Source: an uncultured Clostridia bacterium (GTDB taxonomy: Bacteria; Bacillota; Clostridia; Christensenellales; UBA1242). Taken from it: a stretch of 64,000 nt of DNA. The first letter of the stretch is position 1. Each line of letters starts with the position of its first letter. The stretch spans positions 2,812 through 66,811 of the forward strand of contig CALVNY010000013.1 of NCBI GenBank assembly GCA_944350085.1. Direction: 5' to 3'. The notes below the pieces were generated by a model. The model did no database searches and was not told the DNA's origin. It was given only the letters and a program-made list of their open reading frames with translations. Shown piece after piece: positions 251 through 41,668 of this stretch. Position numbers and translations under genes: made by a program.

Positions 251-325
251 TGGTAGCCCTATGGGGAATCGAACCCCAGATTACACCGTGAGAGGGTGTC
301 GTCTTAACCTCTTGACCATAGGGCC
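251..325 (-). tRNA. tRNA-Glu (anticodon CUC)
   Basis: Reverse complement GGCCCTATGGTCAAGAGGTTAAGACGACACCCTCTCACGGTGTAATCTGGGGTTCGATTCCCCATAGGGCTACCA folds as a cloverleaf: anticodon stem ACACC/GGTGT, loop CT-CTC-AC, T-arm TGGGG-TTCGATT-CCCCA, encoded CCA. The layout resembles Bacillus tRNA-Glu. Confidence 0.85.
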
Positions 326-31126: not shown

Positions 31127-31621
31127 ATGGAAAAGTGGGATTTATACGACAAAAATAGAAACAAATTAAATAAAGTTGTAAATAGGGGCGACTATTTAAG
31201 TGATGACGAATATCATTTGGTTGTAAATGCATGGATCAAAAATGATAAAGATGAGTTTTTGATTACTCAAAGAAACGCAAAAAAAAGTTTTGCTTTTATG
31301 TGGGAATGCACAGGGGGTTCTGCTTTAAGTGGCGAAACGTCGCTTGATGCAGTTGCAAGAGAAGTTAAGGAAGAATTGAATATAGACATAGACAGATCAA
31401 AAGCAACTCTTTTTGATTCTACTTTAAGATATTACAAAGGTTGCCCAGACATTTTAGATGTTTGGGTTATTGTGGACAACACACCAATAGAAAATGTTAA
31501 AATTCAAGAAGAAGAAGTTATGGATGTTAAATGGGCAACAAGGCAAGAAATTATGGATTTATATAATAATGGAAAATTTGAAGCAAATGCATTTTTTAAG
31601 GAAGTAATAAGCAGAGGATAA
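31127..31621 (+). CDS. Nudix hydrolase
   Basis: Nudix box GGSALSGETSLDAVAREVKEELNI. AGGGG RBS. Confidence 0.75.
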   Translation: MEKWDLYDKNRNKLNKVVNRGDYLSDDEYHLVVNAWIKNDKDEFLITQRNAKKSFAFMWECTGGSALSGETSLDAVAREVKEELNIDIDRSKATLFDSTLRYYKGCPDILDVWVIVDNTPIENVKIQEEEVMDVKWATRQEIMDLYNNGKFEANAFFKEVISRG

Positions 31622-37619: not shown

Positions 37620-39977
37620 ATGAAAGACACAAAATTATTATCAAACGAATATTTAAACACACTAGACAAATATTTTAGGGCAGCAAACTATTTAACTGTT
37701 GCACAACTTTATTTATTAAAAAATCCGTTGTTAAAAACCAAACTAAAAAAAGAAGATATTAAGCAAAAATTGGTTGGACATTGGGGAACATGTGCAGGGC
37801 AAAATTTTGTTTATGCTCATTGCGATAGAGTTATAACAAAATACAATCTAGATATGATTTTAATTTCAGGCCCTGGGCATGGTGGCAACTTTTTTGTTGC
37901 AAACTCTTATTTGGAAGGAACTTATAGTGAATATTACCCTAATGTTTCGCAAGATGAAAAGGGGCTAACAAGACTTTGCAAACAATTTTCGTTTGCTGGT
38001 GGAATACCTAGCCACGTTGCACCTGAAACTCCAGGTTCAATAAACGAAGGTGGCGAACTTGGTTATTCTTTGGCTCATGGGTTTGGGGCAGTTTTTGACA
38101 ATCCTAATTTAATAGCCACAGTTATTGTGGGCGATGGTGAATCTGAAACAGGTCCGCTTGCAACATCTTGGCATTCCAACAAATTTATAAATCCCAAAAC
38201 AGATGGTGCAGTTTTGCCAATTTTGCATTTAAATGGATATAAAATTAACAATCCAACAATTTTGTCTAGAATTCCTAAAAAAGAATTAGAAAGTTTGTTT
38301 ATAGGGTATGGCTATCAACCATATTTTATTGAAGGTGATGACCCAAAAGTTATGCATAAATTGATGGCAAAAACAATGGACAAATGCATTGAACAAATTA
38401 AACAAATTCAACACAATGCTAGAAACAACATAAATTCTAAACATATTCCATGGCCAATGATTGTTCTTAGAACTCCAAAAGGCTGGACTGGACCAAAGTT
38501 TGTAGATGGCAAAATGATTGAAAATAGTTTTAGGGCACACCAAATTCCAATTAGTATGGAAAAGGAAGAACATATCAAAATTTTGGAAGATTGGCTTCTT
38601 AGTTACAAACCAGAAGAATTGTTTGATGACAACTACAAATTAAAACCAGAAATTGCAAGTATTTTGCCAAAGGGAAATAAAAGAATAAGTGCAACACCTT
38701 ATGCAAATGGTGGGCTATTGCTTAAAGAATTAAAAACGCCTGATTTAAAAAGTTGTGCATTAGATGTAAAAACTCCGGGTTTAATTAGAGCACAAGATAT
38801 GCTTGAACTTGGTGGTTATATTAAACAACTATTTGAACTAAATAAAGAAAATGGCAATTATAGAATATTTAGCCCAGATGAGGCGATGAGCAATAGATTG
38901 TACAAAGTTTTTGATGTTGAAAATAGAGATTTTAACACTAAAATACTAGATACTGACGAAAAGTTGGCACTTAATGGCAGAATTATGGATTCATACCTTT
39001 CGGAACACATGTGTGAAGGTTGGCTTGAAGGATATTTGCTAACAGGCAGACATGGTATGTTTAATAGTTATGAGGCATTTTTAAGAGTGGTTGATAGCAT
39101 GGTTGCTCAGCACACAAAATGGTTAAAAGTTACAAGAAGTTTAAAATGGAGAAAGCCTATTTCATCATTAAACTTAATTTTAACAAGCAATGTTTGGCAA
39201 CAAGACCACAATGGCTACACCCATCAAGACCCTGGCTTTATTGACCACATGATTAATAAAGCAAAAGATGTTGTTAACATTTATTTGCCTTTTGATGCAA
39301 ACACACTTATGGTTACTTTTGATGATTGCACAAAAAGTAAAAACAAAGTAAATGTTATTACTGCATCAAAACACCCATCATTTCAATGGTTAAATTTAAA
39401 ACAAGCACAAAAGCATTTTAAAGCAGGAGTTGGAGTTTTAGATTTTGCTTGTTTAAATGATAGTAAAAATCCAGACATTGTTTTGGCTTGTGCTGGCGAC
39501 ACTCCAACAATGGAAGCAATAGCAACTGTAACTTTAATTAAAAAATATTTGCCAAAATTAAATGTTAGATTTGTTAATGTTTTAAATCTTATGAAATTGT
39601 TGCAACCAAAAGATTATAGCGAAGGTTTAACCGATGAAGAATTTAATAAAATATTTACGGTTGACAAACCTATTGTGTTTAACTTCCACGGATATCCAAG
39701 AGTTATTAAAGAATTGCTTTACGACAGACAAAACAAAAATCTTTATGTTGCTGGATATGAAGAAGAAGGAACAATAACAACATCATTTGATATGAGAGTT
39801 AAAAACAAAATAGATAGATTTAATTTGTTAAAGCAAATTGCAAGTGTTGTTAAAATTCCAACCCCAACAAAAAATAAGATAATAAAAGATATGGACGCTA
39901 AACTTAAAGAGCATAAGGAATATATTTGTGAATATGGAATAGATATGCCTGAAATTTTAAATTGGAAATTTGAATAA
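37620..39977 (+). CDS. xfp: xylulose-5-phosphate/fructose-6-phosphate phosphoketolase
   Basis: GHWGT, EGGELGY, and GDGESETG thiamine-diphosphate motifs. 785 aa. Confidence 0.92.
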   Translation: MKDTKLLSNEYLNTLDKYFRAANYLTVAQLYLLKNPLLKTKLKKEDIKQKLVGHWGTCAGQNFVYAHCDRVITKYNLDMILISGPGHGGNFFVANSYLEGTYSEYYPNVSQDEKGLTRLCKQFSFAGGIPSHVAPETPGSINEGGELGYSLAHGFGAVFDNPNLIATVIVGDGESETGPLATSWHSNKFINPKTDGAVLPILHLNGYKINNPTILSRIPKKELESLFIGYGYQPYFIEGDDPKVMHKLMAKTMDKCIEQIKQIQHNARNNINSKHIPWPMIVLRTPKGWTGPKFVDGKMIENSFRAHQIPISMEKEEHIKILEDWLLSYKPEELFDDNYKLKPEIASILPKGNKRISATPYANGGLLLKELKTPDLKSCALDVKTPGLIRAQDMLELGGYIKQLFELNKENGNYRIFSPDEAMSNRLYKVFDVENRDFNTKILDTDEKLALNGRIMDSYLSEHMCEGWLEGYLLTGRHGMFNSYEAFLRVVDSMVAQHTKWLKVTRSLKWRKPISSLNLILTSNVWQQDHNGYTHQDPGFIDHMINKAKDVVNIYLPFDANTLMVTFDDCTKSKNKVNVITASKHPSFQWLNLKQAQKHFKAGVGVLDFACLNDSKNPDIVLACAGDTPTMEAIATVTLIKKYLPKLNVRFVNVLNLMKLLQPKDYSEGLTDEEFNKIFTVDKPIVFNFHGYPRVIKELLYDRQNKNLYVAGYEEEGTITTSFDMRVKNKIDRFNLLKQIASVVKIPTPTKNKIIKDMDAKLKEHKEYICEYGIDMPEILNWKFE

Positions 39978-40138: not shown

Positions 40139-40167
40139 TTGACAAATAAAATTAAGTGTAATATACT
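40139..40167 (+). promoter_or_regulatory. sigma-A type promoter upstream of tRNA-Arg
   Basis: TTGACA (40139-44), a 17-nt spacer, then TATACT (40162-67). Confidence 0.55.
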
Positions 40168-40253: not shown

Positions 40254-40330
40254 GCACCCATAGCTCAATTGGATAGAGCGTTGGTCTACGGAACCAAAGG
40301 CTAGGGGTTCGACTCCCTTTGGGTGCACCA
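40254..40330 (+). tRNA. tRNA-Arg (anticodon ACG)
   Basis: GCACCCA acceptor, D-arm GCTC-AATTGGATA-GAGC, anticodon arm TTGGT-CTACGGA-ACCAA, T-arm AGGGG-TTCGACT-CCCTT, encoded CCA. Confidence 0.9.
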
Positions 40331-40379
40331 AATAATAAGTAAAAAAAAGAAGTGCTAAAAACATTTCTTTTTTTTATTT
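40310..40379 (+). repeat. direct repeat copy 1 (tRNA-Arg 3' end plus its terminator)
   Basis: CGACTCCCTTTGGGTGCACCAAATAATAAGTAAAAAAAAGAAGTGCTAAAAACATTTCTTTTTTTTATTT. Contains the GAAGTG/CATTTC hairpin and a T-run. Confidence 0.9.
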
Positions 40380-40484
40380 AAAAATGGAGTCGAACGGGCA
40401 AGAGCGTGCCCAGTGGGCAGATGAAGCGAATTGCCCCGGCGTGATAGTGGCAATGACGGGGCGAACATGACGGGCGAAACGGAG
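40380..40484. other. GC-rich, highly self-complementary insert (candidate structured RNA or integrative-element scar)
   Basis: 62 G+C of 99 nt (40386-40484, hand count) against an AT-rich background. Multiple nested hairpins and a 14-nt tandem repeat (details in findings). Confidence 0.5.
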
Positions 40485-40552
40485 CGACTCCCTTTGGGTG
40501 CACCAAATAATAAGTAAAAAAAGAAGTGCAAAAAACATTTCTTTTTTTATTT
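40485..40552 (+). repeat. direct repeat copy 2 (tRNA 3' end fragment plus terminator)
   Basis: Identical to copy 1 except A8>A7, one T>A in the hairpin loop, and T8>T7. Confidence 0.9.
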
Positions 40553-40765
40553 TAATTTTTTTATTGTTATTTCTATTTTCATTGAAATTTAAATAATTAT
40601 GCAATAACTAATAACAACAACCAAATAGGGGTAATATAATTATATTAATGTAGTTGAAAATTTTAAAATTTAAAAAATATAAAAATTCCATATCCAAATT
40701 AATTCATTTTTATATTATTTAGTTGTGTGTTATAATTTAATGTAAAATGATTAAGAGGTTACAAA

Positions 40766-41668
40766 ATGAAATTAAAAATTTTAGAAAATGATGAAGAATT
40801 AAAAGATAATTGGAACAACAAAATAATAGTAATATCAAAATCGCAATTAAATAATGTTTTTGACAGCAAACAAAATAAAGAGATTATTGATAATTTAAGG
40901 TATATAACATCAAATAAGATTGAAACTTATGAAGACAAGTATTTGGCAACTTTTAACTTTATTTTTTCAGAACAGGCAGAAAATGGTTCAAAAGTTGAAA
41001 AAATTGGGTTGTATTCTGATTTTAAAAATTTTTCTATTTATGTTACAAACAACAAAAATTTGCTTTTAACAAGAATTGAAAATTTGTTGGCATCAGGACT
41101 AGACCATGCTGGAGTTTTTATAAACCTAATAGAAGAACTAACAGAAAATGATTACATTAAACTTGAAAATTTTGAAAATGATTTAAATGATTTTGCTGAT
41201 AGATTGATTAAAGAAAAAGATTTGGAAAGTTGCACCAAAAAAATTTCTTCTTATAGAAGGCTTTTAATAAGATACAAACACCATTATGAACAATTAAATA
41301 ACATAATAGATTTTTTCTCAACGCATTTAGATTTGTTTAGTTTAAAAGAAGACCAAAAACAATTTTTAGTTTTAAGCAAAAGAATTCCAAAATTATATAA
41401 CGAAATTTTATATTTGCGTGATGTGTTATCGCAACTTAGAGAAAGTTACCAATCACAAGTTGAAATTAAACAAAATAATTTGATGAAAACATTTACTTTA
41501 ATTACAGCAATTTTTATGCCGTTGCAGTTGATTGTTGGTTGGTATGGGATGAATTTAATTATGCCAGAATTTAAGTATGCCGTGGCATATCCTATTGTAA
41601 TTGCCGTTTGTGTAATATTTATTGTTGTTGCAATAGTTGTGTTTTATAAGAAAAAGTGGTTTAAGTAA
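40766..41668 (+). CDS. corA: CorA-family Mg2+/Co2+ transporter
   Basis: C-terminal two TM helices with the YGMNL (GMN) signature. AGAGG RBS. Confidence 0.8.
   Translation: MKLKILENDEELKDNWNNKIIVISKSQLNNVFDSKQNKEIIDNLRYITSNKIETYEDKYLATFNFIFSEQAENGSKVEKIGLYSDFKNFSIYVTNNKNLLLTRIENLLASGLDHAGVFINLIEELTENDYIKLENFENDLNDFADRLIKEKDLESCTKKISSYRRLLIRYKHHYEQLNNIIDFFSTHLDLFSLKEDQKQFLVLSKRIPKLYNEILYLRDVLSQLRESYQSQVEIKQNNLMKTFTLITAIFMPLQLIVGWYGMNLIMPEFKYAVAYPIVIAVCVIFIVVAIVVFYKKKWFK

Follow-up and report, generated by a model that had tools for sequence, protein, structure and literature searches.

A possible integration scar at the T-loop of a tRNA-Arg gene, variable among strains of an uncultured Clostridia bacterium

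When an integrase targets a tRNA gene, the crossover falls in the anticodon loop, in the T-loop or at the 3' end of the gene, and the attP of the incoming DNA holds the 3' part of the tRNA. Decayed remnants flanked by att sites, as well as tandem accretion, have been documented at tRNA genes (PMC5704250; bioRxiv 10.1101/2020.12.28.424599), and in "tRNA-dependent lysogeny" the element replaces the host tRNA destroyed by its insertion (PMC10865867). Here we describe a tRNA-Arg gene of an uncultured Clostridia bacterium whose 3' end and terminator are repeated on the far side of a short GC-rich block, and we compare this arrangement with the closest described systems.

Among these are the cis-mobilizable elements (CIMEs) and the tandem accretions at the att sites of ICEs and IMEs (Pavlovic et al. 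2004, reviewed in PMC5704250). Like the locus studied here, they lack integrase and transfer genes, are bounded by att-like repeats containing the target gene's 3' end, stand in tandem with other acquired DNA at one site and depend on the strain for their content; unlike it, they are far larger than 105 nt, whereas the remnant here is GC-rich in an AT-rich host and has no known cognate integrase or parent. In the tycheposons of Prochlorococcus (bioRxiv 10.1101/2020.12.28.424599), partial tRNA copies likewise separate successive or degenerated insertions beside a full-length tRNA, and the islands, as does our locus, vary between closely related cells, but they belong to another phylum, carry hallmark genes and have att sites of about 40 nt, in contrast with the present repeat, which reaches 49 nt past the tRNA and through its terminator. 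In T-loop-targeting integrative elements and prophages the identity likewise starts within the T-loop, the tRNA is restored and a similar imperfect T-arm dyad is seen. These elements carry an integrase, an excisionase and cargo, however, and here all of these are missing and the identity continues through the terminator. Finally, tRNA-like small RNAs and tmRNA share with our locus a GC-rich body followed by a genuine acceptor 3' strand, CCA and then a terminator, but the block described here has no D, anticodon or T arm, and its possible 5' acceptor strand needs two G-U pairs.

The window, by which we mean the whole 64-kb stretch of DNA that was analysed, has 28.8% GC and is ordinary chromosomal DNA of a very AT-rich organism; the closest named relatives of its proteins come from uncultured Clostridia MAGs. 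The genes around the locus encode a P-type ATPase, a Y-family polymerase, a phosphoketolase (XFP), a CorA-family transporter, a zinc alcohol dehydrogenase and other housekeeping functions. XFP (37620-39977) lies 5' of the tRNA-Arg gene, and is followed on the + strand by a promoter-like site for the tRNA at 40139-40167 (TTGACA, 17 nt, TATACT), which agrees with 11 of 12 consensus positions, a consensus match only, and is the sole strong promoter-like site on that strand 5' of the whole array. The tRNA-Arg(ACG) itself (40254-40330, + strand) is intact and has an encoded CCA, as found by ARAGORN and by Rfam (RF00005, 68.5 bits). The first gene 3' of the array is that of the CorA-family transporter (40766-41668, + strand; Pfam PF01544, 3.2e-33), and the 130 nt 5' of it, which contain its own promoter-like site, are shared whether or not a strain has the block. 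Within 20 kb on either side there are no integrase or other mobility genes, and a tblastn search of the window with a phage-type integrase returned zero matches, in agreement with the absence of an integrase noted from the letters alone. The window holds a second tRNA gene, tRNA-Glu(CTC) at 251-325 (- strand), in unremarkable surroundings.

The last 21 nt of the tRNA, together with a 49-nt terminator region, form a direct repeat with copies at 40310-40379 and 40485-40552. The sequence-only reading had reported this repeat with three differences, and its coordinates and differences proved exact: the copies agree over 38 nt, and then differ in an A-run (A8/A7), by one T>A change in the hairpin loop and in a T-run (T8/T7). 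Copy 1 (attL-like, + strand) starts at C56 in the T-loop and comprises the acceptor 3' strand, CCA, a 9-nt spacer and a terminator made of A-run, hairpin and T-run. Copy 2 (attR-like, + strand) is a tRNA 3' fragment with its terminator, without the 5' part of a tRNA ahead of it, and ARAGORN found no second tRNA or tmRNA there. The junction before copy 2, AACGG-AGCGACT-CCCTT, forms an imperfect T-arm-like dyad in which four of the five T-stem pairs are kept. Both terminator hairpins are predicted to be far more stable than shuffled sequences on both strands (40336-40380: dG -16.7 kcal/mol, z = -6.9 on the + strand and -4.1 on the - strand; 40512-40552: dG -14.2 kcal/mol, z = -5.5 and -3.8, respectively), and therefore look like bidirectional terminators. 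In each copy the stable hairpin stands between an A-run and a T-run, as in an intrinsic terminator that works in both directions. A simple terminator scan overlooked the two hairpins, since each has just two G-C pairs.

Between the copies lies a block of 105 nt (40380-40484) with 59% GC. The count of 62 G+C in the 99 nt from 40386 to 40484 (63%), given earlier without any database search, was confirmed against the low GC of the window, and the block is the sole stretch of the 64 kb in which any 100-nt segment reaches 52% GC. No local donor for its sequence was found within the window. At the start of the block, GGAGTCGAAC (40386-40395, + strand) is an exact inverted copy of the T-loop/T-stem sequence GTTCGACTCC (40307-40316), a 10-nt inverted match to the T-arm that was reached by 25 of 5000 shuffles. 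The first 7 nt of GGAGTCGAAC pair with CGACTCC at 40485-40491, with a predicted pairing probability of 0.93-0.995 for the stem. This pair (GGAGTCG at 40386 and CGACTCC at 40485) is one of the complementary motifs that the sequence-only reading had listed, all of which occur where it placed them: GGGCA/TGCCC at 40396, 40407, 40415 and 40432, CCCCG at 40434 with CGGGG at 40457, and tandem 14-mers at 40453-40480 that overlap the right end of the block. The two parts of the block differ in their distribution among strains. The left 77 nt (40380-40456, + strand) recur in some strains as a second, truncated copy in front of a captured NUDIX gene, with 91% identity over 77 nt to L019:5437-5513, and the same part is carried by L045. 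The right 28 nt, CGGGGCGAACATGACGGGCGAAACGGAG (40457-40484, + strand), which overlap the tandem 14-mers, are found solely where the block adjoins a repeat copy.

We compared the locus among strains by anchoring on the flanking proteins XFP and CorA, taking as strains of the same species those with about 98% nucleotide identity in XFP. The number and completeness of the units differ from strain to strain. In allele A (the window, L001/L018 and L002) the order is tRNA, repeat, 105-nt block, repeat and CorA. In allele B (L019, L020 and 15 similar places, L021 and L024) the tRNA and repeat are followed by a block of 104 nt (98%), another repeat, a block cut at 77 nt, the NUDIX gene and CorA. Allele B0 (L045 and 3 similar places) has the tRNA, one repeat, the 77-nt block, NUDIX and CorA, and lacks an intact block-plus-repeat unit. 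Allele C (L023 and L027-L029) has a tRNA-Arg broken in the anticodon loop and is described below. An AT-rich spacer (40553-40635, + strand) is particular to allele A and is missing in alleles B and D; beyond it, homology restarts at about 40636 for allele D and about 40657 for allele B. The T/A variant in the hairpin loop (window 40364 and 40537; L019:5249 and L019:5422) is swapped between copies 1 and 2 when alleles A and B are compared, which points to gene conversion, or to independent recombination events, between the two copies.

The blocks of alleles A and B differ at 2 of 105 positions (98.1% identity), while XFP is 98.3%, the XFP-tRNA spacer 98.2% and CorA 97.9% identical. The divergence of the block is thus the same as that of its neighbours and gives no sign of extra constraint; the unit thus predates the split of the allele A and B strains and has drifted as its surroundings have. 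No empty allele, that is, a tRNA without the block, was seen within the species among the XFP-anchored loci. In a sister species (L032, XFP 87%) the tRNA is followed by a different, single terminator with no block, and the genes downstream are not syntenic; relatives of CorA with 82-84% identity have no tRNA upstream. One contig (L004:1-990, compared with window 40553-40765) encodes a 98% identical CorA with an LRR_5-domain gene upstream in place of XFP, tRNA and block, its homology to the window upstream of CorA being restricted to the last ~130 nt; from this alignment we take the junction to be a further breakpoint at this hot spot. Many of the species' short contigs end exactly in the anticodon loop or at the repeat, which is the behaviour expected of an assembly graph at branch points. 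On these comparisons the locus is a hot spot of within-species variation.

In allele B the truncated second copy of the block passes without a gap into a 134-aa NUDIX gene at its ribosome-binding site and ATG, and the same is seen in B0. The captured segment (L019:5509-6035; L045:5335-5860) includes the ribosome-binding site and about 100 nt of 3' flank. Elsewhere, homologues of this NUDIX gene with 88% and 63% identity belong to different operons, where they follow a 96-aa ORF or a radical-SAM gene and are not accompanied by the block; the donor-type operon in relatives runs radical-SAM (or the 96-aa ORF), NUDIX, dNK and aminotransferase. Homology between them and allele B extends from about 14 nt before the ATG to about 100 nt past the stop, and ends at short shared motifs. 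A local alignment of the block with the native region upstream of NUDIX scored no better than shuffles. Since the homologues lack the block and the upstream regions are no more like it than shuffles are, the NUDIX gene came later and the block is not its leader; judged from these alignments, it was clearly captured into a pre-existing array of repeat plus block, by illegitimate recombination at short homologies. The left NUDIX junction is a mosaic in which a CTATGG patch matches the native upstream sequence at an equal distance from the ATG and the next 14 nt match the block. The window encodes another NUDIX protein (164 aa, 31127-31621, + strand), unrelated to the captured one.

Allele C shows that the same tRNA-Arg gene has received an element with an integrase. 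At L028:5136-7358, and also in L027, L029 and L023, the tRNA-Arg is identical up to ...ctacggaa, and is then followed by unrelated sequence that allows no tRNA fold. About 40 nt beyond the break there is a complete, different tRNA-Arg(ACG), followed by genes for a 419-aa phage-type tyrosine integrase and an HTH_17 protein. The element thus resembles the tRNA-dependent lysogeny mentioned above (PMC10865867), in that it supplies a replacement for the host tRNA it destroys. Its insertion point is the anticodon loop, and its visible part shares zero sequence with the block and the repeat.

The explanation that we favour, and to which we give an even chance, is that DNA once integrated at the T-loop of the tRNA and decayed here to a scar without an integrase, the two repeats being its attL and attR. 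In this scenario a circular molecule bearing a second tRNA 3' end, from position 56 in the T-loop through CCA, together with a terminator, would have entered by a Campbell-type crossover in the T-loop region of tRNA-Arg(ACG). The incoming copy would then complete the tRNA and supply its terminator (40310-40379), while the original 3' end and terminator would have been displaced downstream (40485-40552). The 105-nt GC-rich block would be the residue of the element, and later recombination between the repeated units may have given rise to the strain differences in unit number and completeness. We infer that the crossover was the work of a T-loop-specific tyrosine integrase and not of homologous recombination, and that the block is what survives of a larger element. 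As it varies between strains, such a scar is probably an ordinary one; the terminology used for integrative elements would class it as a minimal cis-mobilizable element or an integration scar. Most likely the block is now inert DNA, without a promoter of its own, between two copies of a symmetric terminator.

Several observations support a scar. The direct repeat begins inside the T-loop, at position 56, a canonical position for crossover, and restores an intact tRNA, and direct repeats of the 3' part of a tRNA flank foreign-looking DNA, as they do in CIMEs. The dyad at the junction is what an attP core with imperfect inverted half-sites would show. Other alleles of the same species, including the element with an integrase, occupy the same tRNA, and the sister species, whose downstream genes are not syntenic, is without the block. 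Tandem units, truncated units, the capture of unrelated DNA and the integrase element together fit a tRNA-seeded hot spot with a decayed remnant, of the sort documented for CIMEs and for arrays of partial tRNAs. The neutral-like divergence of the block speaks for a scar too, as do the negative results with Rfam, with folding stability and in the search for a promoter-like site between the terminators. Against a scar stands the identity that runs 49 nt past CCA, which the sequence-only reading had called atypical and which we agree is long for an att core. Of the two origins put forward in that reading, the scar of a tRNA-targeting element is better supported than an unannotated small RNA, through the start in the T-loop, the hot spot, the integrase element in the same tRNA and the variation in units, but it is unproven, for neither a parent element nor a T-loop integrase nor an empty site within the species has come to light. 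The 63% GC in a 29% GC host and the inverted T-arm copy at the start of the block are oddities that integration leaves unexplained.

We looked for further copies of the block and for its parent element in several collections. Exact-pattern scans with three pieces of the block against viral contigs, and with one piece against the JGI metagenomes, gave zero matches; BLAST of the block against phage and plasmid records returned chance fragments only, and the one match to a 20-mer of the block in species-representative genomes, 21 nt within a Pseudomonas gene, is due to chance. Two versions of the tRNA 3' end, a candidate attP, had zero matches in viral contigs, and the 21-mer of this end was found in 11 contigs of the JGI metagenomes, all of them ordinary single tRNAs without the block. 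Viral contigs, phages, plasmids and JGI metagenomes thus yielded no parent element carrying an integrase and ends or att sites like these, and neither the window nor the strain alleles examined yielded an integrase with T-loop specificity.

A different origin, which we consider unlikely, is a rearrangement without any site-specific step. Under this view, a template switch during replication, or the repair of a break, would have doubled the 69 nt of tRNA 3' end and terminator and brought in 105 nt of functionless filler; unequal crossing-over between the repeats would later have altered the number of units. This would agree with the searches, which found no matching integrase or full-length element, with the reach of the repeat far beyond the tRNA and with the neutral-like divergence of the block. 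The 10-nt inverted T-arm copy at its start would be the inverted microhomology typical of template switching, and the capture of NUDIX at the same spot in allele B clearly proceeded by illegitimate recombination at short homologies. A random break would seldom, however, place the left boundary exactly in the 7-nt T-loop and leave a T-arm-like dyad at the junction, and no donor of the filler was found in the window. We attach negligible weight to an assembly artefact, that is, a mis-joined or falsely duplicated repeat. Short contigs do break at the repeat (L002 begins at window 40375), but the two copies differ at three positions, with a longest exact repeat of 38 nt, and the block with its junctions is present in contigs from at least nine loci in several unrelated ENA assemblies, including scaffolds of up to 380 kb. 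The duplication, for which an artefact had been named as a possible refutation, is accordingly upheld by independent assemblies.

Whether the block is a small RNA was approached with Rfam and with folding predictions. Such an RNA would have about 126 nt, made of the block and the acceptor 3' strand and CCA of tRNA-Arg. Read-through from the tRNA promoter across the first terminator would produce it, with the copied terminator as its end, and its role might be that of a tRNA-like mimic or of a competitor of the tRNA's own 3' half for the 5' half. We regard this as quite unlikely. In its favour are the sole GC island in 64 kb of 29% GC DNA, the closing 7-bp stem with its high predicted pairing, a terminator copy of its own, a strong tRNA promoter followed by a weak first terminator with two G-C pairs, and a predicted fold of the read-through transcript in which the 5' half of the tRNA pairs with the second acceptor copy. 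Against it, the covariance models of Rfam 15 found nothing in the block at E<=10 (551 nt, and 133 nt alone) and likewise nothing in allele B; both the gathering threshold and permissive ones were used, for the whole window, for the block by itself and for allele B, and the tRNA was the sole match. ARAGORN saw no tRNA or tmRNA in it. The insert had been called densely structured, but the minimum free energy of the block with the tRNA 3' end is no better than that of dinucleotide-shuffled sequences for either strand (z = -0.03 for + and +0.37 for -); what stands of the proposed structure is the closing 7-bp stem, predicted with high probability, and two features that exceed chance, the terminator hairpins and the inverted T-arm copy, and what fails is overall folding stability. 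No promoter-like site occurs on the + strand from the first terminator to 40610, and because the block has no promoter of its own and lies between two terminators, its transcription is possible solely by read-through from the tRNA promoter. Neither of the two differences between alleles A and B in the block is compensatory, one of them shortens a predicted stem, and the block diverges as its neutral neighbours do. The allele B0 strains live without an intact unit, and no homologues were found outside the species in the collections searched. Stability beyond composition, a mark of structured RNA, is missing from the block, and the small RNA proposed earlier has no positive support, although transcription past the weak first terminator could still yield one. 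A leader or riboswitch in cis, for NUDIX in allele B or for CorA in the window, has a very slight probability. The first 77 nt of the block do adjoin the ribosome-binding site and ATG of NUDIX in alleles B and B0, and in the window a terminator and then CorA come after the block, but the NUDIX homologues are without the block and their native upstream regions are no more block-like than shuffles, a strain with a 98% identical CorA lacks the block, and Rfam shows no M-box or other riboswitch. The block is not conserved upstream of the orthologues of either gene, and a leader is largely refuted.

There is also a small chance, which we rate as improbable, that the 175-bp unit is functional. In one version it would be a miniature, non-autonomous element that a T-loop-specific integrase moves in trans, the GC-rich block and the inverted T-arm copy serving as the structure to be recognised. 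In the other it would be a read-through RNA that uses its acceptor/CCA end and its 10-nt anti-T-arm to compete with the 5' half of tRNA-Arg or to re-pair that half. Because of the 63% GC and the inverted T-arm copy, which is non-random, we allow a slight probability of something more interesting than a scar. If the integration scar is the true explanation, the locus is a textbook-style footprint of tRNA integration in an uncultured, very AT-rich species of gut Bacillota and a marker for a strain-variable hot spot, with little wider consequence. The block also gives a caution for screens that use GC islands to find structured RNAs in AT-rich genomes, as this island passes on composition and fails the tests of structure.

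Some minor candidates and observations complete the description of the block. A tRNA-like fold closed by GTGCCCA:TGGGTGC was rejected, as it needs two G-U pairs, is 3.6 kcal/mol worse than the best fold and lacks the other arms. The best fold predicted for the read-through transcript (40254-40560) joins the tRNA 5' acceptor strand to the downstream one of the two acceptor copies, and the first T-arm to GGAGUCGAAC in the block. A protein-coding fragment was likewise discarded: the five open translations of the block gave zero Pfam matches, and a phmmer search of the + frame translation against 1.84 billion proteins returned only a spurious 43-aa ORF of allele B and one match inflated by repeats. 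The latter, P0248 of the protein representative library (766 aa), consists of at least 12 tandem repeats of 61 aa (183 nt), each scoring 21.9 bits to the block translation, and its summed E-value is an artefact of the repetition of these weak units. Judged on the translated sequences, its similarity to the block is probably due to chance; the repeat unit contains VFEP, which could be read from a T-loop-like GTTCGAGCC.
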